This document shows, piece after piece, positions 3,102 to 34,481 of a stretch of 64,000 nt of DNA (its first letter is position 1; the number at the start of each line of letters is the position of its first letter). Below the pieces are notes generated by a model. The model was not told the DNA's origin and ran no database searches. It was given only the letters and a program-made list of their open reading frames with translations. Position numbers and translations under genes: made by a program. The DNA comes from Chthoniobacter flavus (lineage in GTDB: Bacteria > Verrucomicrobiota > Verrucomicrobiia > Chthoniobacterales > JACTMZ01): contig CAMDUL010000003.1 of assembly GCA_945878135.1 (NCBI GenBank), forward strand, positions 5,972-69,971. Reading direction: 5' to 3'.

Positions 3102-5138
3102 CTACTCGAGCTTCTGCGCGACTTTTTCGAGGGTGTAGGCCTCGATGATGTCGCCGGCCTCGTATTCGTCGTAATCCCCGAGCTTGATGCCGCATTCGAA
3201 GCCGTTACGCACTTCCTTAACGTCGTCCTTGAAGCGGCGCAGGGTCGAGATGCCGCCGTCGTAGATCGGCTGCTTGCGCCGCAGGACACGGGCCCTCGCG
3301 GTGCGCAGGATGCGTCCGTCGGTCACCATGCAACCCGCCACCATGCCCTTGGTCAGGTCGAAGACCTGACGGACTTCGGCGTGGCCTATGACGTTCTCGC
3401 GCAACTCCGGCTCGAGCATTCCGGCCATCGCCTCCTTGATCTGGTCGATCAGCTCGTAAATGATCGAATAAAGTTTGATCTGCACGCCCTCGCGTTTGGC
3501 CGCGGTGGCCGCGCTGTTCTCGGTTTTGACGCCGAAACCGACGACGATGGCGTCCGAAGCGGTGGCCAGAAGGATGTCGGACTCGCTGATCGGTCCGACC
3601 GCGGCGTGGATGACCTCGAGGTCGATCTGCTTGGCTTTGATTTCGCCCAAAGCCTGCAACAGGGCTTCGAGGGACCCCTGCACGTCGGCCTTGAGCACGA
3701 CACGCAAGGCCTTGCGCTGGTCGGCGGCGAGGTTGTCGAAAAGGCTCTCCAAGGTGGCCCGTTGCGGCGCGGCCAGCTTTTCCTGCCGCTGCTCCTCCTG
3801 CCGCTCCTCGCTCAAGGTGCGCGCGGCGCGTTCGGAATCCATGACCATCAATTCGTCGCCTGCTTTGGGCAGTCCGTCGAAGCCGAGGATTTTCACCGGC
3901 ATGCCGGGGCCGGTTTCCTTGACCGGTTTGCCGAGGTCGTTGATCAGAGATTTGATTTTGCCCCACTGCAGGCCGCAAAGGAAGGCCTGGCCGACCTTGA
4001 GGGTGCCCATCTTGACGATGAGCGTCGCGGTGGGGCCGCGTCCGGGTTCCATCTCGGCCTCGATGATGGTGGCGCGGGCCGGAACTTTGGGGCTGGCCTT
4101 GAGTTCGAGCACCTCGGCTTGCAAGGCCATCATTTCCAGGAGGTGATCGATGCCGGTGCCTTTGGTGGCGGAGACGGGACAGACAATGGTCGATCCGCCC
4201 CAATCCTCGGGCGAGAGGTCGTGTTCCTGCAACTGCTGCTTCACGCGGTCGACATTGGCCGTGGGCAGGTCGGTCTTGTTGACCGCGACAATGATGGTCA
4301 CACCCGCCGCTTTGGCGTGGCTGATGGCTTCCTCGGTCTGCGGCATGATGCCGTCATCGGCCGCGACAACGAGGACCACGATGTCGGTGACGTTCGCCCC
4401 GCGGGCCCGCATGGCGGTGAAGGCCGCGTGGCCCGGAGTATCGAGAAAAGTTATTTTGTGCCCGCCATGCTCGACCGAGTAGGCGGCGATGTGCTGGGTG
4501 ATGCCGCCCGCTTCGCCCGCGGCGACGCGGGCCTTGCGGATGAAATCCATGAGGGAGGTTTTGCCATGGTCGACATGGCCCATGAAGGTGATGACCGGCG
4601 GGCGCGCTTCGAGTTCCTCGCTCGCCACTTCGACTTCCGGTTCGGACGGCGGGGCCACGACCGGTTCGGCTTTGTGCACGCCGCCGCCGGCCTGGCGTTT
4701 TTCTTTCTCGAAAACGCAACCGTGCTTCTCGCAGACCAGCGAAGCGACGGCGGGCTCGATGGTCTGGTTGAGGTTGGCGAAAATGTTCGCCTCCATCAGG
4801 TCCTTGATGACCACGAAGGGCTTGAGTCCGAGGGCCGCGGCCAGGTCCTTCACCACGATCGGCGGCTTGATGTTGATGATTTTCTTCCCGTCCTCGGTCA
4901 CCTCGGGCTCCTCGGGGGCCATCGCCGCGGGTGCGGCGGGTTCGGGGACAACCGGCGGAGCGGCGGTCACTTTTTTCGGCTTCTCGTCGATCAAGGAGAG
5001 CACTTCGACCGGCGCTTTGGGCGCGGTTTTCGGCTTGGCCTCAGCCGCCGGTTTGGCCGCAGGTTTGGCCGCCGACGCCGCCTTGGCCGCGGGTTTCTTC
5101 GCGGCGGGCTTCTTGGTGGCTGGCGCTTTGGCGGGCAT
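3102..5138 (-). CDS. infB: Translation initiation factor IF-2
   Basis: [27 protein letters not shown] and NKTD G-domain motifs; short N-terminus with PAAKK-type repeats. Confidence 0.97.
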
Positions 5139-6507: not shown

Positions 6508-6560
6508 CGTCGGAAAAGGTTGCGAGGAACCTACTGAAGCGGTCCCGGAGTGTCAAGACA

Positions 6561-6632
6561 TGCGCGATGCAGGGTTCGAACCTGCGACATCTTGCGTGTG
6601 AAGCAAGCGCTCTACCACTGAGCTAATCGCGC
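6561..6632 (-). tRNA. tRNA-Val(CAC)
   Basis: Cloverleaf GCGCGAT-TAGCTCAGTGGTAGAGC-CTTGC-TT-CAC-AC-GCAAG...GGTTCGAACC...ATCGCGC-A; CCA not encoded. Confidence 0.95.
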
Positions 6633-6684: not shown

Positions 6685-7725
6685 CTACCGCACAAGCAGG
6701 CGGTCACCCGCCGACAACCCCTCGAGCACGGGATAAAAACCGTCCAACTCCTCCCCGACCCGCACCCGCACGCTCTCGGGTCCGCCTTCGCCCGGCGCCA
6801 CGCGCAGGACGGTCGCCCCCGCCCCCTCGAGGCGCACGCAGGCGGTGGGAATGAAAAGTTGGTCCCGGTAAAGACCGACCCGGGCGGTAATTTCCCCGGT
6901 CAGACCGCCCCGCAGGGCCAGATCGGCGTTGGGCAACTCGCCTTCGACGCGGAAGAGGCGTGTGGCCTCATCGGAGGCCCGGGCCGCATGGACAACCGGC
7001 ACGTCGAAGATCTGCCCGGGCGCGGCGGGCAGGCGCAGCCGGATCATGGTGCCGGCCGGAAACGACGCGATGTCCCGCTCGTTGACATAGAAAACGACGC
7101 GCAGCCGGCTGGTGTCGACCATGCGCGCGACCGGTTGGTTGACATTGACCGCCTCGCCCACCTGCACCAGACGCTCGACGACCGACCCGTCGAACGGCGC
7201 GCGGATCGTGTGGTCATCCAAACGGGCCCGCGTGGCATCCTCTTCGGCGTCGGCCTGCCGCGTCTCGGCGCGGATCGCTTCCACCTGCGTGCGAGAGACC
7301 ACCCTGCTGCGCCCCAAGGTCTCGGCTTCGCCCAGCAGGCGCTGCAATTCCAGCAGCTTGGCCTCGGCCCGCCGGTAGTCGCTCGCCGCGATTTCGTCGT
7401 CGAGCAGCACCAACTCGTCGCCCTTCCGCACGACCGAGCCCGGCTCGACTTTCACCGCGGAGACCCGCCCGGCAACTTCGGCCGGGATGTCGGACACCAA
7501 CCAGGGATCGACCGCCGCGGCGTAACGGCGTTCGCGTTCGACGGTGCGCGGCTCGACCGTGAGGATGAAATCATCGCGCTCTTTGAGCAGCGCCTTCTCC
7601 TCCTGCAGCCGCCGCTTCTGCTCGACCGAATCGAAATAGCGCCCGACCGAAGCCAGGATCACCGCGACAAGCAAGGCCAGGCCGGCGAACGCGAGAATGG
7701 CGCGCTTGGATCGGCGGGCGAGCAT
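6685..7725 (-). CDS. Efflux RND transporter periplasmic adaptor (membrane fusion protein)
   Basis: N-terminal TM segment, lipoyl-like AEVAGRV..V.V.PGS.V.KGD.L, coiled hairpin, IRAPFDG.V motif. Confidence 0.85.
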   Translation of the reverse strand: MLARRSKRAILAFAGLALLVAVILASVGRYFDSVEQKRRLQEEKALLKERDDFILTVEPRTVERERRYAAAVDPWLVSDIPAEVAGRVSAVKVEPGSVVRKGDELVLLDDEIAASDYRRAEAKLLELQRLLGEAETLGRSRVVSRTQVEAIRAETRQADAEEDATRARLDDHTIRAPFDGSVVERLVQVGEAVNVNQPVARMVDTSRLRVVFYVNERDIASFPAGTMIRLRLPAAPGQIFDVPVVHAARASDEATRLFRVEGELPNADLALRGGLTGEITARVGLYRDQLFIPTACVRLEGAGATVLRVAPGEGGPESVRVRVGEELDGFYPVLEGLSAGDRLLVR

Positions 7726-7763
7726 AGCGGGAGCTTACACCGCGGGAAGGCCCGCGTCACGCG

Positions 7764-8153
7764 TCAGGCATCCAGCCGCACGACGCACTCGATTTCCACC
7801 TGCATGTTGAGCAGCTGCGCCCCCACGGTGGTTCGCGCCGGATAGTCGCCCCGGAAGAATTCCTGGTAGACCGCGTTCATCTCGGCGAAATTTTTCTCGG
7901 TCAACTGGGCGAGGAAAACCCTCACGCTGACCACATCGGCAAGCCGCCCGCCCGCGCCCTCGACAACCTTGCGCAAGTTTTCCAGCACCACACGGGTTTG
8001 CTCGGCGACCGGCCCCTTGTTCATTTGACCCGTGGCCGGGTCCATGGGGGTCATCCCGGAGACGAAAAGGAATTTTCCCTCCGCGGCAACCGCGAGGGAG
8101 TAAGGACCGATGGCCGAGGGGCCATCGGGAACGGCGGTGAAACATTGACGCAT
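7764..8153 (-). CDS. ridA: RidA/YjgF/UK114 family enamine-imine deaminase
   Basis: IGPYS, SGMTP, FAEMNAVY.EFF, YPARTTV and VEIEC motifs. Confidence 0.9.
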   Translation of the reverse strand: MRQCFTAVPDGPSAIGPYSLAVAAEGKFLFVSGMTPMDPATGQMNKGPVAEQTRVVLENLRKVVEGAGGRLADVVSVRVFLAQLTEKNFAEMNAVYQEFFRGDYPARTTVGAQLLNMQVEIECVVRLDA

Positions 8154-21404: not shown

Positions 21405-22910
21405 ATGAACCGCCGCCGTGCTTCCCGCCTCGCCGTCGCCACCATGGCACTCTTCCTCGCCGCCCCGGTGCTCGAGGCCAACCGCGCCGGACAGAATGCG
21501 GCAGCCCGCGGAGGGGGCCAACGTCCCGCCAATGTCCAGCGTCCGGCCAACGTCCAACGCCCCACCAATGTGCCGCGTCCAGCGCCGCGGCCGGCCAATG
21601 TCCAACGACCGGCCAATCCCGGTGGCGGCCGGTTGCCGGCGTCCGTGAGCAAGCCCGCCAGCGACCAGCGCCCGAACCGTCCAGCAACGTCCAAGCCGTC
21701 CGGCTCGGTGCAGCGCCCGCAAATTCCCCAGCAGAGCTCCCGCCCGGCCGCGGGCGGCAAATTGCCCTCCGGCCAGCCGGCCAAGGACCGGGTCAATAAA
21801 CCGGTCGACTTCGGCAACCTGCAGCCGCAACGCCCGAAACTGCCCGGCGACGACAAAATGGCCGGCCCCGCCGACCGACGTCCGTCCGACCTCACCCGCC
21901 CCGCCGCGCGACCCGGACAGATCCAAGGCGACGGCAACCTCAAAGACCGGCGTCCCGCCAGCGTGCCGCCGCGCGACCGCTTCGCACAATACCCGGGCGT
22001 GGCCGATAACCTCAACCGTCGTCCCGGCGGTTATGACAAATGGCAGCAGAACCGCGAGAACCATTGGGACTCCTTTCACACGCAACGCGCCGACCGTCTC
22101 GACCAATTCCAGACCAACCGCGACGACCGGTGGAACAATATCTTTGCGGTGCAGAACGACCGGCAGGATTTCTACACCAACCGCCGCGAGGACTGGCAAC
22201 GTTGGTCGAATGACCGGCAATCCTACCGCCAGGACCGCGCGTGGGAGGTCCTCGACAATGTCCGTGATTACCACACGAACCTGTTCGTGCCCGATTGGTA
22301 TTACCGCACTTCGTGGTGGCGCCCCTCGTTGGTTTACCGACCCGCGGTCAGCCCCTGGACGTGGTGGCGCCCCGCCGCGTGGACCGGACTGGCCGCCTTC
22401 CTCGGCGGTGCCGCCGTCGCCAACCAACTCGACCGCAACTACGGCACGCAGGTTTATTACGACCAGACCAACTACTACATCCAAGGCCAACCAGTGGCAC
22501 CGGCCCCCGTCTACCGCCAGCAGGCCCTCGACCTCGCCGCCGTCCCGGTCTCGGAGGAGCCGTTCGTGCCCGTCGAGAACAAGGACGACACCGGATGGTA
22601 TCCCCTCGGCGTCTGGGCCCTCACCCAAGAGGAAAAAGGCGACGCCGTCATGTTCTACCAACTCGCCGTCAACAAGCAGGGCGAAGTCTCCGGCGCCTAC
22701 AACAACGTGCTCACCGGCGAAACCTCGCCCGTCACCGGCAGTGTCGATTTCGAAACGCAGCGCGTGGCTTGGCGCACCGGCAACTCCGACTCCACCGCGA
22801 TCGAGGCCAACCTCGCGGGCCTGACCAAAGACTTCACCCCCGTCTTCGTCCACTACGGCACCGGCCAGACGCAAGAATGGCTGCTCGTCCGCATGGAAGA
22901 TCCGACCTGA
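21405..22910 (+). CDS. Secreted protein with Arg/Pro-rich disordered N-terminus and conserved-looking C-terminal domain (planctomycete 'mu-protocadherin-like' type)
   Basis: Signal peptide; RPANVQ repeats; Trp/Tyr-rich middle; C-terminal WYPLGVWAL...LAVNKQG.VSGAY.N. Confidence 0.7.
   Translation: MNRRRASRLAVATMALFLAAPVLEANRAGQNAAARGGGQRPANVQRPANVQRPTNVPRPAPRPANVQRPANPGGGRLPASVSKPASDQRPNRPATSKPSGSVQRPQIPQQSSRPAAGGKLPSGQPAKDRVNKPVDFGNLQPQRPKLPGDDKMAGPADRRPSDLTRPAARPGQIQGDGNLKDRRPASVPPRDRFAQYPGVADNLNRRPGGYDKWQQNRENHWDSFHTQRADRLDQFQTNRDDRWNNIFAVQNDRQDFYTNRREDWQRWSNDRQSYRQDRAWEVLDNVRDYHTNLFVPDWYYRTSWWRPSLVYRPAVSPWTWWRPAAWTGLAAFLGGAAVANQLDRNYGTQVYYDQTNYYIQGQPVAPAPVYRQQALDLAAVPVSEEPFVPVENKDDTGWYPLGVWALTQEEKGDAVMFYQLAVNKQGEVSGAYNNVLTGETSPVTGSVDFETQRVAWRTGNSDSTAIEANLAGLTKDFTPVFVHYGTGQTQEWLLVRMEDPT
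21519..21620 (+). repeat. 18-bp imperfect coding tandem repeats (RPANVQ)
   Basis: CAACGTCCCGCCAATGTC / CAGCGTCCGGCCAACGTC / CAACGCCCCACCAATGTG and related units. Confidence 0.75.
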
Positions 22911-30980: not shown

Positions 30981-31016
30981 TCCGCCCTCTCTGCGTTCTC
31001 TGCGCCCTCTACGGTT
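30981..31016 (+). repeat. Imperfect 9-mer tandem repeat (TCTGCGTTC/TCTGCGCCC/TCTACGGTT)
   Basis: Three to four units upstream of cca. Confidence 0.55.
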
Positions 31017-31056
31017 TCCATCTCCCACCCCACCCGATAGACTCCCACCATCACCG

Positions 31057-32373
31057 ATGGATCCGAAATCCGCCGCCACTGACATCGCCCGCCGCCTCCA
31101 AGAGGCCGGCCACACCGCGTATTTCGCCGGCGGCTGCGTGCGCGACGAACTTCTCGGACTCGACCCGCACGACTATGACATTGCCACCTCGGCCAAACCG
31201 GCCGAAGTGCGGGAACTTTTCCCCCACACCCAGGCCGTCGGCGCCCACTTCGGCGTAATCCTCGTCATGGAACACGGCCGTGCTTTCGAAGTGGCCACCT
31301 TCCGCTCCGACCACGAATACCTCGACGGACGCCGCCCGGAGATGGTCACGTTCTCCACCCCCGAAGACGACGCCGCGCGGCGCGATTTCACCATCAACGG
31401 CATGTTCCACGATCCGGTGGCGGAGAAATTCATCGACTTCGTCGGCGGCCGCGTAGATCTCGCCTCGCAAACCCTCCGCGCCATCGGCGATCCCGTGGCC
31501 CGCCTCCGCGAAGACAAACTCCGCCTCCTCCGCGCCGTGCGCTTCGCCGCCCGTTTCGGCTACGAGATCGATCCGGCCACGTGGGATGCGATCAAAGCGC
31601 ACGCCGCCGACATTCATGCAGTCAGCGCCGAACGCATCCGTGAGGAACTGGTCAAGATCCTCGCCCATCCCAACCGCGTCCGCGGTTTCGATCTCCTCGA
31701 TCAAAGCGGACTCCTCAAAGAAATCCTCCCCGAGATCGAAACCCTCAAAGGCTGCGAACAACCCGCCCAATTCCATCCCGAAGGCGATGTCTTCGTCCAC
31801 ACCCGAGCCATGCTCGAACTTCTCCCGCCCGAGGCACCGGCCAGCCTCGCACTCGCCGTTCTCTTCCACGACATCGGCAAGCCCCCGACCTTCCGCTACC
31901 ACGCCGATGAAGACCGCATCCGTTTCAGCGGACACGACCGCGTCGGTGCCTCCATGACCGAAAAACTGATGGAGCGACTCCGCTTCTCCCGTCACGACAT
32001 CGACCGCGTGTCGGAAGCCGTCCGCCAGCACATGGTCTTCAAGGACGTGCAAAACATGCGCACCGCCAAATTGAAGCGCTTCATGGCCCGCGAGGGATTC
32101 GATGAGGAACTCGAACTCCACCGCGTCGACTGTCAGAGCAGCCATGGCGCCCTCGACAACTACGATTTCCTCAAAACCAAAGCGGAAGAATTCGCCAACG
32201 AACCTCTCATCCCGCCCCCGCTCCTCACCGGCCACGACCTCATGGCCCTCGGCTGGAAACCCGGCCCCCACTTCGGCCCCGTTTTGGAGGCCGTGCAAAC
32301 CGCCCAACTCGAAGGCACGCTCACCACGGCTGAAGAAGCCATCGCGTGGATCAAAGCAAACCACCCCTTATGA
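31057..32373 (+). CDS. cca: CCA tRNA nucleotidyltransferase with HD domain
   Basis: GGCVRD, DYDIAT, RRDFTING, EDKLRLLRAVRF and HDIGKP; lacks the poly(A) polymerase G(RK)RF signature. Confidence 0.85.
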   Translation: MDPKSAATDIARRLQEAGHTAYFAGGCVRDELLGLDPHDYDIATSAKPAEVRELFPHTQAVGAHFGVILVMEHGRAFEVATFRSDHEYLDGRRPEMVTFSTPEDDAARRDFTINGMFHDPVAEKFIDFVGGRVDLASQTLRAIGDPVARLREDKLRLLRAVRFAARFGYEIDPATWDAIKAHAADIHAVSAERIREELVKILAHPNRVRGFDLLDQSGLLKEILPEIETLKGCEQPAQFHPEGDVFVHTRAMLELLPPEAPASLALAVLFHDIGKPPTFRYHADEDRIRFSGHDRVGASMTEKLMERLRFSRHDIDRVSEAVRQHMVFKDVQNMRTAKLKRFMAREGFDEELELHRVDCQSSHGALDNYDFLKTKAEEFANEPLIPPPLLTGHDLMALGWKPGPHFGPVLEAVQTAQLEGTLTTAEEAIAWIKANHPL

Positions 32374-32402
32374 GCCGAGCGAAAGCGAGACAGCCCCTAG
32401 GC

Positions 32403-32430
32403 AAATCTCAGATTTCAAATTTGAAATCCC
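32403..32430 (+). repeat. Heptamer array 1: AAATCTC AGATTTC AAATTTG AAATCCC
   Basis: Read directly; ends 7 nt before the four-helix-bundle ATG. Confidence 0.85.
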
Positions 32431-32437
32431 CAAGGCC

Positions 32438-32947
32438 ATGACCTACCAGTCCTTCGAAGATTTGCCGGTTTGGAACGCCGCCATCGAACTGGCCGAGGGC
32501 TGCGAGGATTTTCTGTCCGCGGCCAAAGACCGGATTAGTTGGTCGAAGCGGGACCAATTGGAACGCGCTTCCCTCTCCGTCTCCAACAATATCGCGGAAG
32601 GCTTCGAGCGCGGGACGACTAACGAGCTCCTCAACTTCCTCTACATCGCCCGCGGCTCGGCCGGAGAAGTCCGATCGATGCTCACTTACTTCGAAAGACG
32701 CCCCGCGCTGAAAGATTTCAAATCTCAAATTTCTAATCTGAAATCCCAGGCCGAGTCCTGCTCCCGCCAGCTCCGCGCTTGGGCAGAATCGCTCCAAAAC
32801 TCCCCCATCAAAGGCCAACGCCACCTCAACAACGCCGAACGCAATCGCCACGAGCAGAAGAAAAAGGCCGACGCCTTTATCGAGAGGCTCAACGCGGCCT
32901 TGCCCGATGGACACCCGGCCAAAAAGCAGCCCAAACGCTCTATCTGA
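32438..32947 (+). CDS. Four helix bundle protein (IVS-encoded/Avd-like superfamily)
   Basis: YQSFEDLPVWNAAIELA, DQLERASLSVSNNIAEGFER, FLYIARGSAGEVRS pattern. Confidence 0.9.
   Translation: MTYQSFEDLPVWNAAIELAEGCEDFLSAAKDRISWSKRDQLERASLSVSNNIAEGFERGTTNELLNFLYIARGSAGEVRSMLTYFERRPALKDFKSQISNLKSQAESCSRQLRAWAESLQNSPIKGQRHLNNAERNRHEQKKKADAFIERLNAALPDGHPAKKQPKRSI
32713..32747 (+). repeat. Heptamer array 2 (in frame within the four-helix-bundle CDS, DFKSQISNLKS)
   Basis: AGATTTC AAATCTC AAATTTC TAATCTG AAATCCC. Confidence 0.85.
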
Positions 32948-32967
32948 AATCTCAAATCTGAAATTTC
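32940..32967 (+). repeat. Heptamer array 3 (contains the four-helix-bundle stop codon)
   Basis: CTATCTG AAATCTC AAATCTG AAATTTC; ends 7 nt before the udg ATG. Confidence 0.85.
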
Positions 32968-32974
32968 CCCAACC

Positions 32975-33763
32975 ATGTCCTCTCTCCAAGAAGCCACCGC
33001 ACTCCTCGAGCAATCCCTGCGCACGCGCCGGTCTCTCCTCGGCCGCACCCGCCCCAGCGTGACCCGCGATTCCCTCGAACGCCTGACCGAAACCCGCCCA
33101 CGACAACGATCTGAAATTTCAAATCTGAAATCTGAAATGCCTCGTTCCGCGCGTCTTGCCGCGCTGAACGAGGCCGTCCGCGCGTGCCGCCAATGCGAGC
33201 ACCTCGCCGCCTCCCGCACCCAAACCGTCTTCGGCGCCGGCAACCCCGACGCCGACCTCATGTTCGTTGGCGAAGCTCCCGGCTTCGACGAGGACAAGAA
33301 AGGCGAACCCTTCGTCGGTCCCGCCGGCGAACTGCTGACCAAAATCATCACCGCCATGGGCCTGACCCGCGATGATGTCTACATCGCCAACGTCCTCAAA
33401 TGCCGCCCCGACATGCCCAAGGGCTCCCCCGGCAATCGTCCGCCCGAACCACTCGAGATGCAACGCTGCCTCCCCTACCTCCGCGAACAAATCGCCATCA
33501 TCCAACCCCGCATCCTCGTCGCCCTCGGCAAAACCGCCATGGCAGGACTCACCGGGCGCGATGAAGCCATGGGCGCGATGCGCGGCCGTTGGTTCACCTT
33601 CGAAAACATCCCGCTCCTCGCGACCTACCATCCGTCCTATCTCCTGCGCAACGGCTCCATGTCCGAGAAACGCAAAGTCTGGGAGGACATGCTCCTTGTC
33701 ATGGAAAAACTCAGCCTGCCCATTTCGGAAAAACAACGCGGCTTTTTCCGCACCGCTTCCTGA
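32975..33763 (+). CDS. udg: Uracil-DNA glycosylase family 4
   Basis: CRQCEHL, MFVGEAPG, EPFVGPAG, NVLKCRP, C.PYL and HPSYLLR. Confidence 0.92.
   Translation: MSSLQEATALLEQSLRTRRSLLGRTRPSVTRDSLERLTETRPRQRSEISNLKSEMPRSARLAALNEAVRACRQCEHLAASRTQTVFGAGNPDADLMFVGEAPGFDEDKKGEPFVGPAGELLTKIITAMGLTRDDVYIANVLKCRPDMPKGSPGNRPPEPLEMQRCLPYLREQIAIIQPRILVALGKTAMAGLTGRDEAMGAMRGRWFTFENIPLLATYHPSYLLRNGSMSEKRKVWEDMLLVMEKLSLPISEKQRGFFRTAS
33107..33141 (+). repeat. Heptamer array 4 (in frame in the UDG N-terminal linker, RSEISNLKSEM)
   Basis: CGATCTG AAATTTC AAATCTG AAATCTG AAATGCC. Confidence 0.85.
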
Positions 33764-33779
33764 ATTGAAAGATCCGCGC

Positions 33780-34481
33780 ATGGTCTCCGCCACCGGCTAT
33801 TACCTCGGCGCGCACTTTTTCCGCATCGTCCTGGCCCCCTTCACCCGCCGCCGCGTCCTCGGCGAACACCACATTCCGCACACCGGCCCGGCCGTCCTCG
33901 CCCCCAACCACATCAGCCACTTCGACCCGCCCCTCCTCGGCATCAGCGCGGACCGCCAGGTCGATTGGATGGCCATGGAGGAACTTTTCCAAAACCCCCT
34001 CCTCGCCCGCATCCTCCGCTGGGTCGGATCATTTCCCGTGGGTCGCGGCAAGATGGACTACGCCGCCGTGCGCACCGCCATCGAACGCCTCAAAATCGGC
34101 CGCATGGTCGGCGTCTTTCCCGAAGGCGGGCTCCGCACCGGCCCGGCCTCGGTCCTTGAAGGCGCCCCGCTCAAACCCGGCGTGGCCGCCCTCGCCCAAA
34201 TGACCCAAGCACCCGTCATTCCCTGCGCCGTCATCGGCACCGACGCCCTCTACAATCCCGCCCGCTGGCTCCCCTGGCGCCAGACCAAAGTCTGGATCGT
34301 CTTCGGCCCGCCGCTCCATCCGCCCGCCGCCACCGGCGACAAGGCCGCCGCCCGCCAAGCTTTCGACGAAAAACTCGGCCAAACCATCCGCGACCTCTAC
34401 CACCGCACGATCCGGGAAGAAAGCATCCCCGCCGATTGCCTCCCGCAAACCCCGCAAAAACGCAAAGGCCGCGAGCTATGA
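33780..34481 (+). CDS. 1-acyl-sn-glycerol-3-phosphate acyltransferase-like (PlsC family)
   Basis: NHISHFDP (HX4D) and FPEGG motifs. Confidence 0.88.
   Translation: MVSATGYYLGAHFFRIVLAPFTRRRVLGEHHIPHTGPAVLAPNHISHFDPPLLGISADRQVDWMAMEELFQNPLLARILRWVGSFPVGRGKMDYAAVRTAIERLKIGRMVGVFPEGGLRTGPASVLEGAPLKPGVAALAQMTQAPVIPCAVIGTDALYNPARWLPWRQTKVWIVFGPPLHPPAATGDKAAARQAFDEKLGQTIRDLYHRTIREESIPADCLPQTPQKRKGREL

Follow-up and report, generated by a model that had tools for sequence, protein, structure and literature searches.

A four-helix-bundle gene and its AAATYTS heptamer arrays move together between unrelated operons, most often into CRISPR-Cas loci

We found that a four-helix-bundle gene of the PF05635 family and the AAATYTS heptamer arrays that accompany it move together between unrelated operons, most often into CRISPR-Cas loci. 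The copy studied here lies between cca and udg in a stretch of 64,000 bases (the window), and is an old, vertically inherited offshoot of a lineage linked mainly to CRISPR adaptation; because the cca-udg gene has been inherited vertically within its own clade, it is not a recent insertion. We read gene and repeats, with a probability of roughly 0.5, as a promoterless, intervening-sequence-like PF05635 cassette residing in host operons and acting in cis on the transcript through its repeat arms. The locus comprises the following features:

31057..32373, + strand: cca, CCA-adding tRNA nucleotidyltransferase, upstream operon gene (PF01743, PF12627 and HD domains; NF009814)
32402..32430, + strand: A1, upstream array AAATCTC AGATTTC AAATTTG AAATCCC, containing the palindrome GATTTCAAATTTGAAATC
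32438..32947, + strand: four-helix-bundle gene, 169 aa, ATG to TGA (PF05635/TIGR02436, extra C-terminal helix)
32713..32747, + strand: A2, internal in-frame array encoding DFKSQISNLKSQ, at the start of helix 4
32940..32967, + strand: A3, downstream array holding the TGA stop (32945-32947) of the four-helix-bundle gene
32975..33763, + strand: udg, family-4 uracil-DNA glycosylase, downstream operon gene (TIGR00758 9.3e-55, PF03167)
33107..33141, + strand: A4, array in frame in the udg N-terminal linker, encoding RSEISNLKSE; predicted pairing partner of A1

Profile matches of all three genes bear out the preliminary description, made from the sequence alone, of a four-helix-bundle gene between cca and udg. 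The cca synteny is kept in the related loci L001, L002 and L006, and udg carries a 54-aa N-terminal extension that is conserved in L002 and L006. Three arrays had been described, which we place at 32402-32430, 32713-32747 and 32940-32967, whereas the fourth, at 33107-33141, had been missed. Searching for (AAATYTS)x3 with at most 2 mismatches returned 15 overlapping matches in four clusters, all within 32402-33141 and none elsewhere in the 64,000 bases (chance expectation 0.00, from 100 dinucleotide shuffles), so the family is indeed confined to this locus in the window. GC content is 64.3% for the whole window and 54-58% across the four-helix-bundle gene. No promoter or terminator was predicted on the + strand between 31000 and 34000, and Rfam gave no match at 32200-33300. 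In agreement with the earlier statement that no mobility gene lies nearby, gene calls over 10 kb around the syntenic locus L001 include no transposase, integrase or reverse transcriptase (RT), and no RT turned up among the called or annotated genes of the further contexts inspected.

Since the heptamer is quasi-palindromic (AAATTTC reads GAAATTT on the opposite strand), arrays of the one AAATYTS family can pair mutually. A1 and A4 are 91% complementary over 23 nt and A1 and A3 79% over 28 nt, and pairing of A1 with A4 is predicted in the MFE and centroid folds alike. Neither this complementarity between arrays nor the CRISPR link had been remarked on in the preliminary description. A4 is found in 6 of the 8 members of the cca-udg clade, and the coding arrays preserve the reading frame. 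A -1 frameshift on AAATTTS has little in its favour: one unit only lies in the X_XXY_YYZ phase, with no supporting feature.

The window protein matches PF05635 (6e-21, 75.1 bits vs. a cut-off of 33.8) and TIGR02436 (2.8e-19, 69.3 bits vs. a cut-off of 24). PF05635 is a very large family (more than 7,500 database clusters past the E-value cut-off), in which two structures have been solved, both without a known function, and Avd is the one member known to be characterised. An AF2 monomer model (pLDDT 87) places helices at residues 10-28, 35-58, 61-86, 89-120 and 132-154, and its best Foldseek matches in the PDB are 2gsc (TM 0.79-0.87 normalised by target), 2rld, and Avd (4dwl/8ub7). Going by this model and the profile matches, the protein is an up-down four-helix bundle of the IVS protein/Avd family, the fold that had been proposed for it, with an extra C-terminal helix that carries conserved IKGQRHL and LPxGHP motifs. 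The R..A..S....NIAEG block is present as RDQLxRAxLSVSNNIAEGFERG, invariant or nearly so in sets of 15 and 82 orthologs, and aligns with the equivalent block of Xcc0516; more than 120 orthologs were found at 72-96% identity. The relatives 2gsc and 2rld have five chains each in their solved structures, and Xcc0516 comprises five four-helix bundles according to the reference list of PMC3936711. By analogy with the five-chain 2gsc and 2rld, the window protein, modelled as a monomer only, is probably pentameric.

We compared the window with 85 related loci (60-96% identity, GC 0.39-0.68). The subfamily, of 165-190 aa, occupies at least 12 unrelated gene neighbourhoods, including cca|udg, proC|AI-2E transporter, SRAP|lyase and CRISPR-Cas types I-C, I-E and I-U, with AAATYTS arrays accompanying it in each. 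These contexts are interspersed on the protein tree, in most loci the gene runs in the same direction as both its neighbours, and the neighbours identified by Pfam are Cas4, Cas1, a Cas4-Cas1 fusion, Cas6e, GSU0054, Cas7, P5CR and AI-2E. The internal array is present in 72 of 80 metagenome loci and flanking arrays lie upstream in 46 and downstream in 44 of 77, while only 26 other arrays occur over 418 kb of flanks. Array density falls from 5.3/kb within 100 nt of the gene through 1.19, 0.28, 0.11 and 0.04 to 0 farther out, with zero arrays in the 357 kb of related loci lying more than 2 kb from the gene. The proposal that gene and repeats travel together is thus supported by the number of neighbourhoods and by the density gradient alike.

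Individual arrays consist of 3-5 imperfect units, with a length mode of 35-36 nt (5 units; 95 arrays) and only 13 arrays reaching 42 nt or more. Their orientation favours the sense strand by about 2.5:1, and the distance from array end to ATG has a median of 22 nt, filled by a C/A-rich spacer without a Shine-Dalgarno sequence. About one third of the subfamily, the type I-E-linked group included, has the internal array only and no arms, and extra arrays occur inside the neighbouring coding regions of cas4, cas1 and udg. Orthologs at the same locus that lacked the repeats had been named as evidence that would speak against a shared cassette; some cca|udg orthologs do lack one or both flanking arrays while retaining the gene, but the internal array is kept throughout. 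No empty cca|udg site was obtained: the window's CCA enzyme matched 120 clusters, all at 89% identity or above and therefore of the same clade as the window, so that the argument for mobility draws on the protein tree together with the canonical adjacency of cas4-cas1, cas6e-cas1 and accB-accC.

The converse rule, that arrays always stand beside a four-helix-bundle gene, was rejected. Among 120 stretches with an exact 21-nt array, which span Acidobacteriota, Planctomycetota, Cyanobacteria, Bacteroidota and others, only three (L072, L101 and L095) have such a gene nearby. About 22-33 of the 120 are ORF-less inverted array pairs, and some low-GC matches are plain coiled-coil coding sequence.

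In its commonest context the subfamily gene immediately precedes cas1, in CRISPR-Cas operons of types I-C, I-E and I-U. A cas neighbour is present in about 37 of 88 related loci, and the nearest relatives of the window protein directly precede cas1 or a cas4-cas1 fusion; generic PF05635 members also occur at cmr2|cmr3 and cas6|cas4-cas1d. A gene placed upstream of cas1 in three type I subtypes may modulate spacer acquisition. In locus L183 the CRISPR repeat is a typical type I-C repeat and no array was found in the CRISPR leader. CRISPR-linked 23S_rRNA_IVP genes appear in Zhang, Doak and Ye 2014 (PMC3936711) and Altae-Tran et al. 2023 (PMC10910872, Fig. 6B); as in our loci, these are PF05635 genes in cas operons adjoining cas4, cas6 or cas1, and the keyword-matched passages of the two papers make no mention of flanking repeats or a mechanism. 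Unlike them, the window copy stands outside any cas locus: none of the cas proteins taken from related loci had a tblastn match in the 64 kb.

We next turn to the internal array, in which synonymous positions are fixed as in the heptamer consensus (GC3 0.28 vs. 0.70). Lysine codons are AAA rather than AAG at 141:5 within the array vs. 330:296, and asparagine codons AAT rather than AAC at 71:0 vs. 158:370. These counts show that the internal array is constrained as nucleotides, beyond what the protein needs. Rare-codon pausing was rejected as the reason, since loci with a GC of 0.39-0.46 show identical codon fixation. In-frame repeats of this kind have a parallel in the Rickettsia palindromic elements, short repeats inserted in frame in unrelated protein-coding genes and tolerated there, as in-frame arrays are in udg, cas4 and cas1; those elements differ in sequence and size, and insertions of the window type cluster round a specific gene.

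Arms of a comparable design also mark PF05635 genes outside the subfamily. Complementary heptamer arms exceeded shuffles in 8 of 10 plasmid PF05635 genes, with the pairs GGGAACA/TGTTCCC, GGGGTGT/ACACCCT, ACAGGTG/CACCTGT, AAGGTTY/RAACCTT, GGGAAAA/TTTTCCC and GGAGATA/TATCTCC, and in Xanthomonas arrays of GGGAATC and its reverse complement flank Xcc0516 orthologs between accB and accC. These generic cassettes have no internal array and precisely complementary arms, which in the predicted fold of one of them (L330) pair around the ORF with z = -6.6. The generic plan is thus an ORF within an operon between reverse-complementary tandem-heptamer arms, the heptamer varying from cassette to cassette. 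In the window's own subfamily, flank complementarity is clearly above shuffles in only 16 of 64 loci, a number that rises to 31 under a less strict threshold. These figures come from direct scoring of the arms, as RNAduplex run against mononucleotide shuffles of the 110-nt flanks proved insensitive where these are GC-rich (median z -0.3).

Among the closest known counterparts is the ORF-bearing intervening sequence (IVS) of 23S rRNA. In Leptospira and Coxiella such sequences are sporadic, later vertically inherited, and tolerated in an essential transcript (PMC4990558); that of Coxiella, a selfish element of 428 nt, contains an S23p ORF. The window cassette resembles them in its PF05635 ORF, its lack of a mobility gene, and its sporadic distribution followed by vertical inheritance. 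It differs in sitting in a protein-coding operon, between cca and udg, instead of in helix 9, 25 or 45 of 23S rRNA, in having tandem quasi-palindromic heptamers where IVS arms are unique inverted repeats, and in carrying an array within the ORF and more in neighbouring genes; RNase III cutting of the window cassette has not been shown. As to a transposon or MITE, no transposase was found (L001), and the arms of the generic family are inverted.

By analogy with the inverted repeats at the ends of 23S rRNA intervening sequences that carry an ORF, the arms would pair on the polycistronic transcript and so bracket the ORF, an inference for which there are no RNA-level data. The resulting stem would probably be an RNase III substrate (cutting is untested) and would join the upstream stop with the downstream start, which would let the host operon tolerate the insertion and the cassette be expressed. 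The protein may bind the arms, though binding too is untested, and the arrays would grow, shrink, decay and reseed locally. Several observations sit poorly with this intervening-sequence model. The arms of the subfamily are A/U-rich and imperfect, a third of the subfamily is armless, arms are lost in close relatives, and arrays lie inside cas4, cas1 and udg. C-type units would give A·C mismatches on the sense strand where the antisense strand would give G·U. The bracket cannot account for the internal array, and the heptamer periodicity is left unexplained because a stem needs complementarity, not a 7-nt period.

In a rival operator model, the arrays would be sequence-specific RNA or ssDNA binding sites for the oligomeric four-helix-bundle protein, one heptamer per subunit, much as the TRAP ring reads GAG repeats; the protein would set translation of its own and the next gene, and pairing between arrays would be incidental. 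We treat this as a serious possibility, if an unlikely one. In its favour, the internal array is present in most loci (72/80), with its synonymous sites fixed even where flanking arrays are absent, and arrays lie only close to the gene in the genomes of related loci. A mode at 5 units with a steep fall above it fits the five chains of 2gsc and 2rld and the five bundles listed for Xcc0516 in PMC3936711, and placement a median of 22 nt before the ATG, after which comes a C/A-rich spacer with no Shine-Dalgarno sequence, suits translational control; each generic paralog having its own heptamer, and Avd being part of the DGR ribonucleoprotein (8ub7), point the same way. Yet there are no binding data, and Avd is reported to bind nucleic acid without sequence specificity. 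Across the family the heptamers diverge widely but the protein block RAxxSVxxNIAEG stays conserved, close relatives dispense with flanking arrays, the sense-strand preference is just ~2.5:1, and a single-strand operator does not predict the reverse-complement arms of the generic family.

The arrays might instead serve expression or insulation without any role for the protein, as AU-rich unstructured ribosome-landing sites whose G-type units add TGA stops in three frames, so that a gene dropped in a foreign operon is translated and upstream read-through ended. A1 and A3 each end 7 nt ahead of a start codon (those of the four-helix-bundle gene and udg), and upstream genes often stop at an array TGA, the window gene ending ...KRSI* and the tRNA-synthetase (PF00152) gene upstream in L004 ending ...PKSEI*. 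In another Verrucomicrobiia genome, arrays abut the starts of genes that by inspection look like a sugar kinase and an aminotransferase, with no four-helix-bundle gene nearby, and TAACTGA heptamers of Beggiatoaceae lie just 5' of start codons (PMC4679880). We nevertheless hold this improbable, as it does not explain the restriction of arrays to within 2 kb of one gene, the internal coding array with its fixed synonymous sites, the arrays within cas4 and cas1 or the reverse-complement rule of the generic family, and all other gene junctions of the window are without arrays. A neutral account, under which the internal array alone is functional and the others are short-lived local copies (by slippage, template switching or gene conversion) that then decay, is in line with the steep drop in density with distance, the rapid gain and loss of arrays among relatives of 80-92% identity around a constant internal array, and the survival in neighbouring coding regions of in-frame, stop-free arrays only. 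It has equally little to recommend it overall: flanking arrays are placed at gene junctions and not at random, their lengths show a mode and ceiling with no geometric tail, and generic cassettes without an internal array still keep precisely complementary arms. Finally, the fold common to Avd could suggest a DGR-like system with its RT encoded elsewhere, and tandem repeats differing in copy number between strains could suggest contingency microsatellites that switch expression by phase variation. Avd shares the four-helix-bundle fold and probably the pentameric assembly, and belongs to a ribonucleoprotein, but its identity to the window protein is only ~14%, the latter has the extra C-terminal helix with IKGQRHL and LPxGHP, no RT was called within 10 kb in L001, and the heptamer arrays are the only repeats that were noticed. 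The arrays are short (3-5 units) and imperfect instead of long near-perfect tracts, the coding arrays stay in frame, and the arrays flank housekeeping or cas genes instead of genes for surface proteins, so that either version can scarcely be credited.

Returning to the intervening-sequence reading, the preliminary description offered two options, selfishness of the element or a protein that has binding sites of its own; the choice is unresolved, and the two are not mutually exclusive. The label selfish has been attached to ORF-bearing intervening sequences since 1993 with no mechanism known, and catalogues of heptamer tandem repeats go back to 1990 with no known partner or established function. 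The locus and its relatives link PF05635, ORF-bearing intervening sequences and heptamer tandem repeats: an ORF family bears heptamer-array arms outside rRNA, within mRNA operons; the arms covary as reverse complements; and one subfamily also writes the repeat into its coding sequence, held at synonymous sites.

Another bacterial heptanucleotide tandem repeat is the cyanobacterial STRR. Further heptamer repeats are TAACTGA in Beggiatoaceae, Cyanobacteria and Bacteroidetes (PMC4679880) and GGGAATC in Xanthomonas and GGGGAYT in Nostoc (PMC4692102), and keyword matches in these two papers revealed no link of the repeats to a protein family. Known heptamer repeats share with the window arrays 7-nt units in 2-6 copies, positions at co-directional gene junctions within ~50 nt of stops and starts, and sometimes an in-frame place in ORFs, but TAACTGA and GGGAATC are described as scattered genome-wide whereas the window arrays are confined to one gene's neighbourhood. 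We raise, as a conjecture that we consider far more apt to fail than to hold, that PF05635 pentamers are the missing protein partners of heptanucleotide repeats, each paralog recognising, and perhaps propagating, its own heptamer (AAATYTS here, GGGAATC for Xcc0516 of Xanthomonas, and GGGAACA, GGGGTGT, ACAGGTG and others in cyanobacteria), with the gene marked by arms of that heptamer. If true, it would account for an excess of 7-nt repeats that has long been noted in prokaryotes (STRR, TAACTGA, GGGAATC). A class of intervening-sequence-like cassettes would then be defined that act at the RNA level and colonise operons, especially those of CRISPR adaptation modules. A tractable host is available in Xanthomonas, where Xcc0516 lies between accB and accC. 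In IMG/VR we found no relative of the window's four-helix-bundle subfamily; the AAATYTS array pattern does turn up in viral contigs.

The four arrays of the AAATYTS heptamer at the cca-udg locus are a real feature of a window whose GC content is 64.3%, and lie in and around the following genes.

31057-32373, + strand: CCA-adding enzyme gene (cca), upstream neighbour of the four-helix-bundle gene
32402-32430: array A1, ending 7 nt 5' of the four-helix-bundle gene ATG
32438-32947, + strand: four-helix-bundle ORF, 169 aa (PF05635, 6e-21; TIGR02436, 2.8e-19)
32713-32747: array A2, in frame inside the four-helix-bundle gene, encoding DFKSQISNLKSQ
32940-32967: array A3, including the four-helix-bundle gene TGA stop and ending 7 nt 5' of the udg ATG
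32975-33763, + strand: family-4 uracil-DNA glycosylase gene (udg), downstream neighbour
33107-33141: array A4, in frame in the udg N-terminal extension, encoding RSEISNLKSE

Gene order and profile matches (PF05635, 23S rRNA intervening-sequence protein; TIGR02436, four helix bundle protein) agree with the preliminary description in placing a four-helix-bundle gene between cca and udg. The three arrays that it reported (A1-A3) are present, its count having missed A4, and its remark that the array family was unseen elsewhere in the window is borne out: all 15 matches to (AAATYTS)x3 with at most 2 mismatches fall within the A1-A4 clusters, with 0.00 expected from 100 shuffles of the window. Three heptamers make 21 nt, or 7 codons, which translate to the heptad (S/K)(E/Q)ISNLK with Ile/Leu at coiled-coil spacing, and a pure AAATCTG array contains TGA in all three forward frames. 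Neither a sigma-70-like promoter nor a terminator was predicted on the + strand at 31000-34000, and an Rfam search gave no match at the locus. The 54-aa N-terminal extension of the family-4 UDG (MSSLQEATALLEQSL...), kept in relatives, carries A4 in its linker (window 32975-33141); an ATG directly 3' of A4 (33137) occurs in the window and in comparison loci L127 and L001, and not in L128, L129 or L130. Tandem Repeats Finder also reported two unrelated repeats in the window, at 21518-21617 (period 18, 5.9 copies) and 5035-5096 (period 30, 2.1 copies).

The encoded protein belongs to the PF05635 family. Database clusters that match it over the full length at 72-96% identity number more than 120, and their named sources are Chthoniobacterales or Terrimicrobiaceae MAGs. 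Its AlphaFold model (pLDDT 87) has helices at 10-28, 35-58, 61-86 and 89-120 and an additional one at 132-154, with the peptide encoded by A2 at the start of helix 4. The best solved structural matches are the Xanthomonas protein Xcc0516 (2gsc), BT_0352 (2rld) and the DGR protein Avd (4dwl, 8ub7), which together with the PF05635 profile uphold the fold earlier proposed as shared with IVS-encoded proteins and Avd. Both uncharacterised structures (2gsc, 2rld) contain five chains, and published work describes Xcc0516 as five four-helix bundles (reference list of PMC3936711).

The arrays accompany the gene from locus to locus. L001, L002 and L006 (80-88% identity) retain the order cca, four-helix-bundle gene, udg. 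At 75-77% identity the gene occupies other sites, flanked in L004 by a tRNA synthetase gene and cas3 and in L005 by genes for an SRAP protein and a lyase, with arrays present there too. A metagenome contig scan yielded 80 further loci (60-92% identity, GC 0.39-0.68), with an internal array in 72/80, an upstream array within 150 nt of the gene in 46/77 and a downstream array within 300 nt in 44/77; other arrays in the 418 kb of flanks came to only 26. The co-travelling cassette inferred from the window is thus met again at L004, L005 and the metagenome loci, and across 85 related loci the arrays are confined to the gene's neighbourhood.

Array density by distance from the four-helix-bundle gene (85 loci)
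0-100 nt: 5.3 per kb
100-250 nt: 1.19 per kb
250-500 nt: 0.28 per kb
0.5-1 kb: 0.11 per kb
1-2 kb: 0.04 per kb
beyond 2 kb: 0 (357 kb in total)

Array length has its mode at 35-36 nt (95 arrays), followed by 28-29 nt (60 arrays), with only 13 arrays of at least 42 nt. The idea that orthologs at the same locus keep their repeats held for the internal array, found in all members of the cca-udg clade, but not for the flanking arrays, which come and go; A4 occurs in 6/8 members, and a subfamily group with the internal array alone also exists. In two related loci we also observed PIN-domain (VapC-like) genes at a distance of a few kb (L005 2652-3343 and 5407-6047; L001 17202-17908); one has a VapB antitoxin gene as its partner.

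In most loci the gene runs in the same direction as the genes on either side. Neighbour clustering, with Pfam on representatives, defined the contexts below, and a cas gene is a neighbour in about 37/88.

Genomic contexts of the four-helix-bundle gene
type I-C: cas7, cas4, four-helix-bundle gene, cas1, cas2
type I-E: cas6e, four-helix-bundle gene, cas1
type I-U: GSU0054/csb2, four-helix-bundle gene, cas4-cas1 fusion
cas3: four-helix-bundle gene adjoins cas3 in some loci
proC: proC, four-helix-bundle gene, AI-2E transporter (8 loci)
cca-udg: cca, four-helix-bundle gene, udg (7 loci)

In two type I-C operons (L183 5197-7961, L185 5083-8011) the gene lies between cas4 and cas1, both of which hold several in-frame heptamer arrays, such as GYESQISNLKSEIRIL and RESEISDFQSQISE; the cas1/cas2 junction reads TGA, array, ATG, and L183 has a real type I-C CRISPR array. 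Contexts are intermixed in a protein UPGMA tree, where the window falls in a monophyletic cca-udg clade that has CRISPR-linked groups nearest to it. No homolog of the queried cas proteins was found in the window, nor was the subfamily found in IMG/VR. PF05635 genes in cas loci were already known (PMC3936711; PMC10910872, Fig. 6B).

Codon usage in 82 unique orthologs shows the internal array to be constrained at the nucleotide level. Codons 93-102 have the consensus gAT tTc AAA TCT cAa ATt TCA aAT tTG AAA TCc, with GC at third positions of 0.28 against 0.70 in the rest of the gene, Lys AAA:AAG of 141:5 against 330:296 and Asn AAT:AAC of 71:0 against 158:370 (Fisher p = 5e-28 and 9e-34, inflated because orthologs share ancestry). 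Synonymous sites outside the array are freely mixed in the same genes. Codon rarity is ruled out as the cause, since identical codons are equally fixed in low-GC loci.

Because the heptamer is quasi-palindromic (AAATTTC has the reverse complement GAAATTT), arrays of the same family can pair. Complementarity is 91% over 23 nt for A1/A4, 79% over 28 nt for A1/A3 and 81% over 26 nt for A2/A4, and folding of 32380-33150 predicts A1:A4 pairing in both MFE and centroid structures, in a stem that would enclose the ORF and the udg extension, with a z of only -1.96. Subfamily arm complementarity is clearly above shuffles in 16/64 loci. When arrays pair on the sense strand, their C-type units (AAAUCUS) produce A·C mismatches, positions that would be G·U wobbles on the antisense, so that an antisense transcript would fold better than the sense.

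Ten generic PF05635 genes, more distant members fetched after tblastn against plasmids (27-46% identity), extend the pattern: in 8/10 the ORF is flanked by reverse-complementary arms scoring above shuffles, most of them tandem heptamers, with each cassette having its own.

Arm units of generic cassettes
upstream GGGAACA, downstream TGTTCCC
upstream GGGGTGT, downstream ACACCCT
upstream ACAGGTG, downstream CACCTGT
upstream AAGGTTY, downstream RAACCTT
upstream GGGAAAA, downstream TTTTCCC
upstream GGAGATA, downstream TATCTCC

These genes, too, are co-directional members of operons, found at the cmr2-cmr3 junction, in the interval from cas6 to cas4-cas1d, downstream of a gene for a conjugative coupling protein, and downstream of lepA and an accessory gene of Fe-S assembly; the internal array is absent from all of them. 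Folding of one cassette (L330) pairs its two arms, with the entire ORF enclosed between them (z = -6.6). On an Anabaena sp. 90 plasmid (L333 1158-1403), 22 exact ACAGGTG units spread over ~250 nt (~35 unit lengths) occupy the space that separates cas6 from the four-helix-bundle gene, and three CACCTGT units (1952-1972) lie within the annotated start of cas4. In Xanthomonas, Rhodanobacter and Lysobacter (L338 2923-3375, L339 2983-3440, L340 2983-3440), orthologs of Xcc0516 occupy the accB-accC junction, with GGGAATC-type units on the upstream side and, reaching as far as the accC ATG, their reverse complement on the downstream side. The repeat runs into N-terminal codons in L339 and L340 (MGIRDSS, MGNRESS). 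GGGAATC is a published Xanthomonas heptamer repeat (PMC4692102), and keyword searches of that paper did not find the Xcc0516 gene. Arms that vary by cassette yet remain complementary amount to whole-arm covariation in the wider family, which argues for selection on pairing.

The evidence best supports reading the locus as a promoterless cassette, similar to an intervening sequence, whose repeat arms act in cis on the transcript. We infer that the arms would form a stem in vivo, that RNase III may process it, by analogy with Coxiella and Leptospira intervening sequences (PMC4990558), and that the host operon would be insulated from the insertion. Binding of the arrays by the four-helix-bundle protein is the main rival, or a complement, to this stem model, and remains open. 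ORF-bearing intervening sequences with terminal inverted repeats were already known (PMC4990558 and works cited there), as were heptamer repeats near starts and stops (PMC4679880, PMC4692102). Full-text searches found no published link between PF05635 genes outside rRNA and flanking heptamer arrays and no published description of the AAATYTS subfamily, an absence that does not prove novelty.

The enrichment of arrays near such genes, raised in the preliminary description, is evident outward from the gene, but not from the arrays: scanning one genome from each species for exact matches gave at least 120 stretches (~17 by chance, a rough estimate under uniform composition), of which, among the matches listed, only 3 have a four-helix-bundle gene nearby. 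Listed stretches span Acidobacteriota, Planctomycetota, Verrucomicrobiota, Cyanobacteria, Bacteroidota, Chloroflexota and other phyla; some abut start codons of unrelated genes, and some low-GC matches are ordinary coiled-coil coding sequence. In an 8-kb stretch (L057) that lacks a four-helix-bundle gene and comes from a Verrucomicrobiia MAG, arrays at 4341-4378 and 7753-7797 lie directly 5' of the start codons of two genes, by inspection only sugar kinase-like and, on the other strand, aminotransferase-like. Inverted array pairs 1-160 nt apart without an ORF between them occur in ~22-33 of the listed stretches and may be empty or decayed cassettes, or independent hairpins; examples from other phyla are L098 355-507, L118 2725-2823, L123 969-1129 and L064 1472-1530. 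Finally, arrays of GGCAGGA, AATCCGC, GAAACGT, GGACTGT and GGAATCT directly adjoin AAATYTS arrays (L094 ~7590-7680, L115 ~6530-6600, L075 2540-3610), suggesting composite heptamer-repeat tracts.
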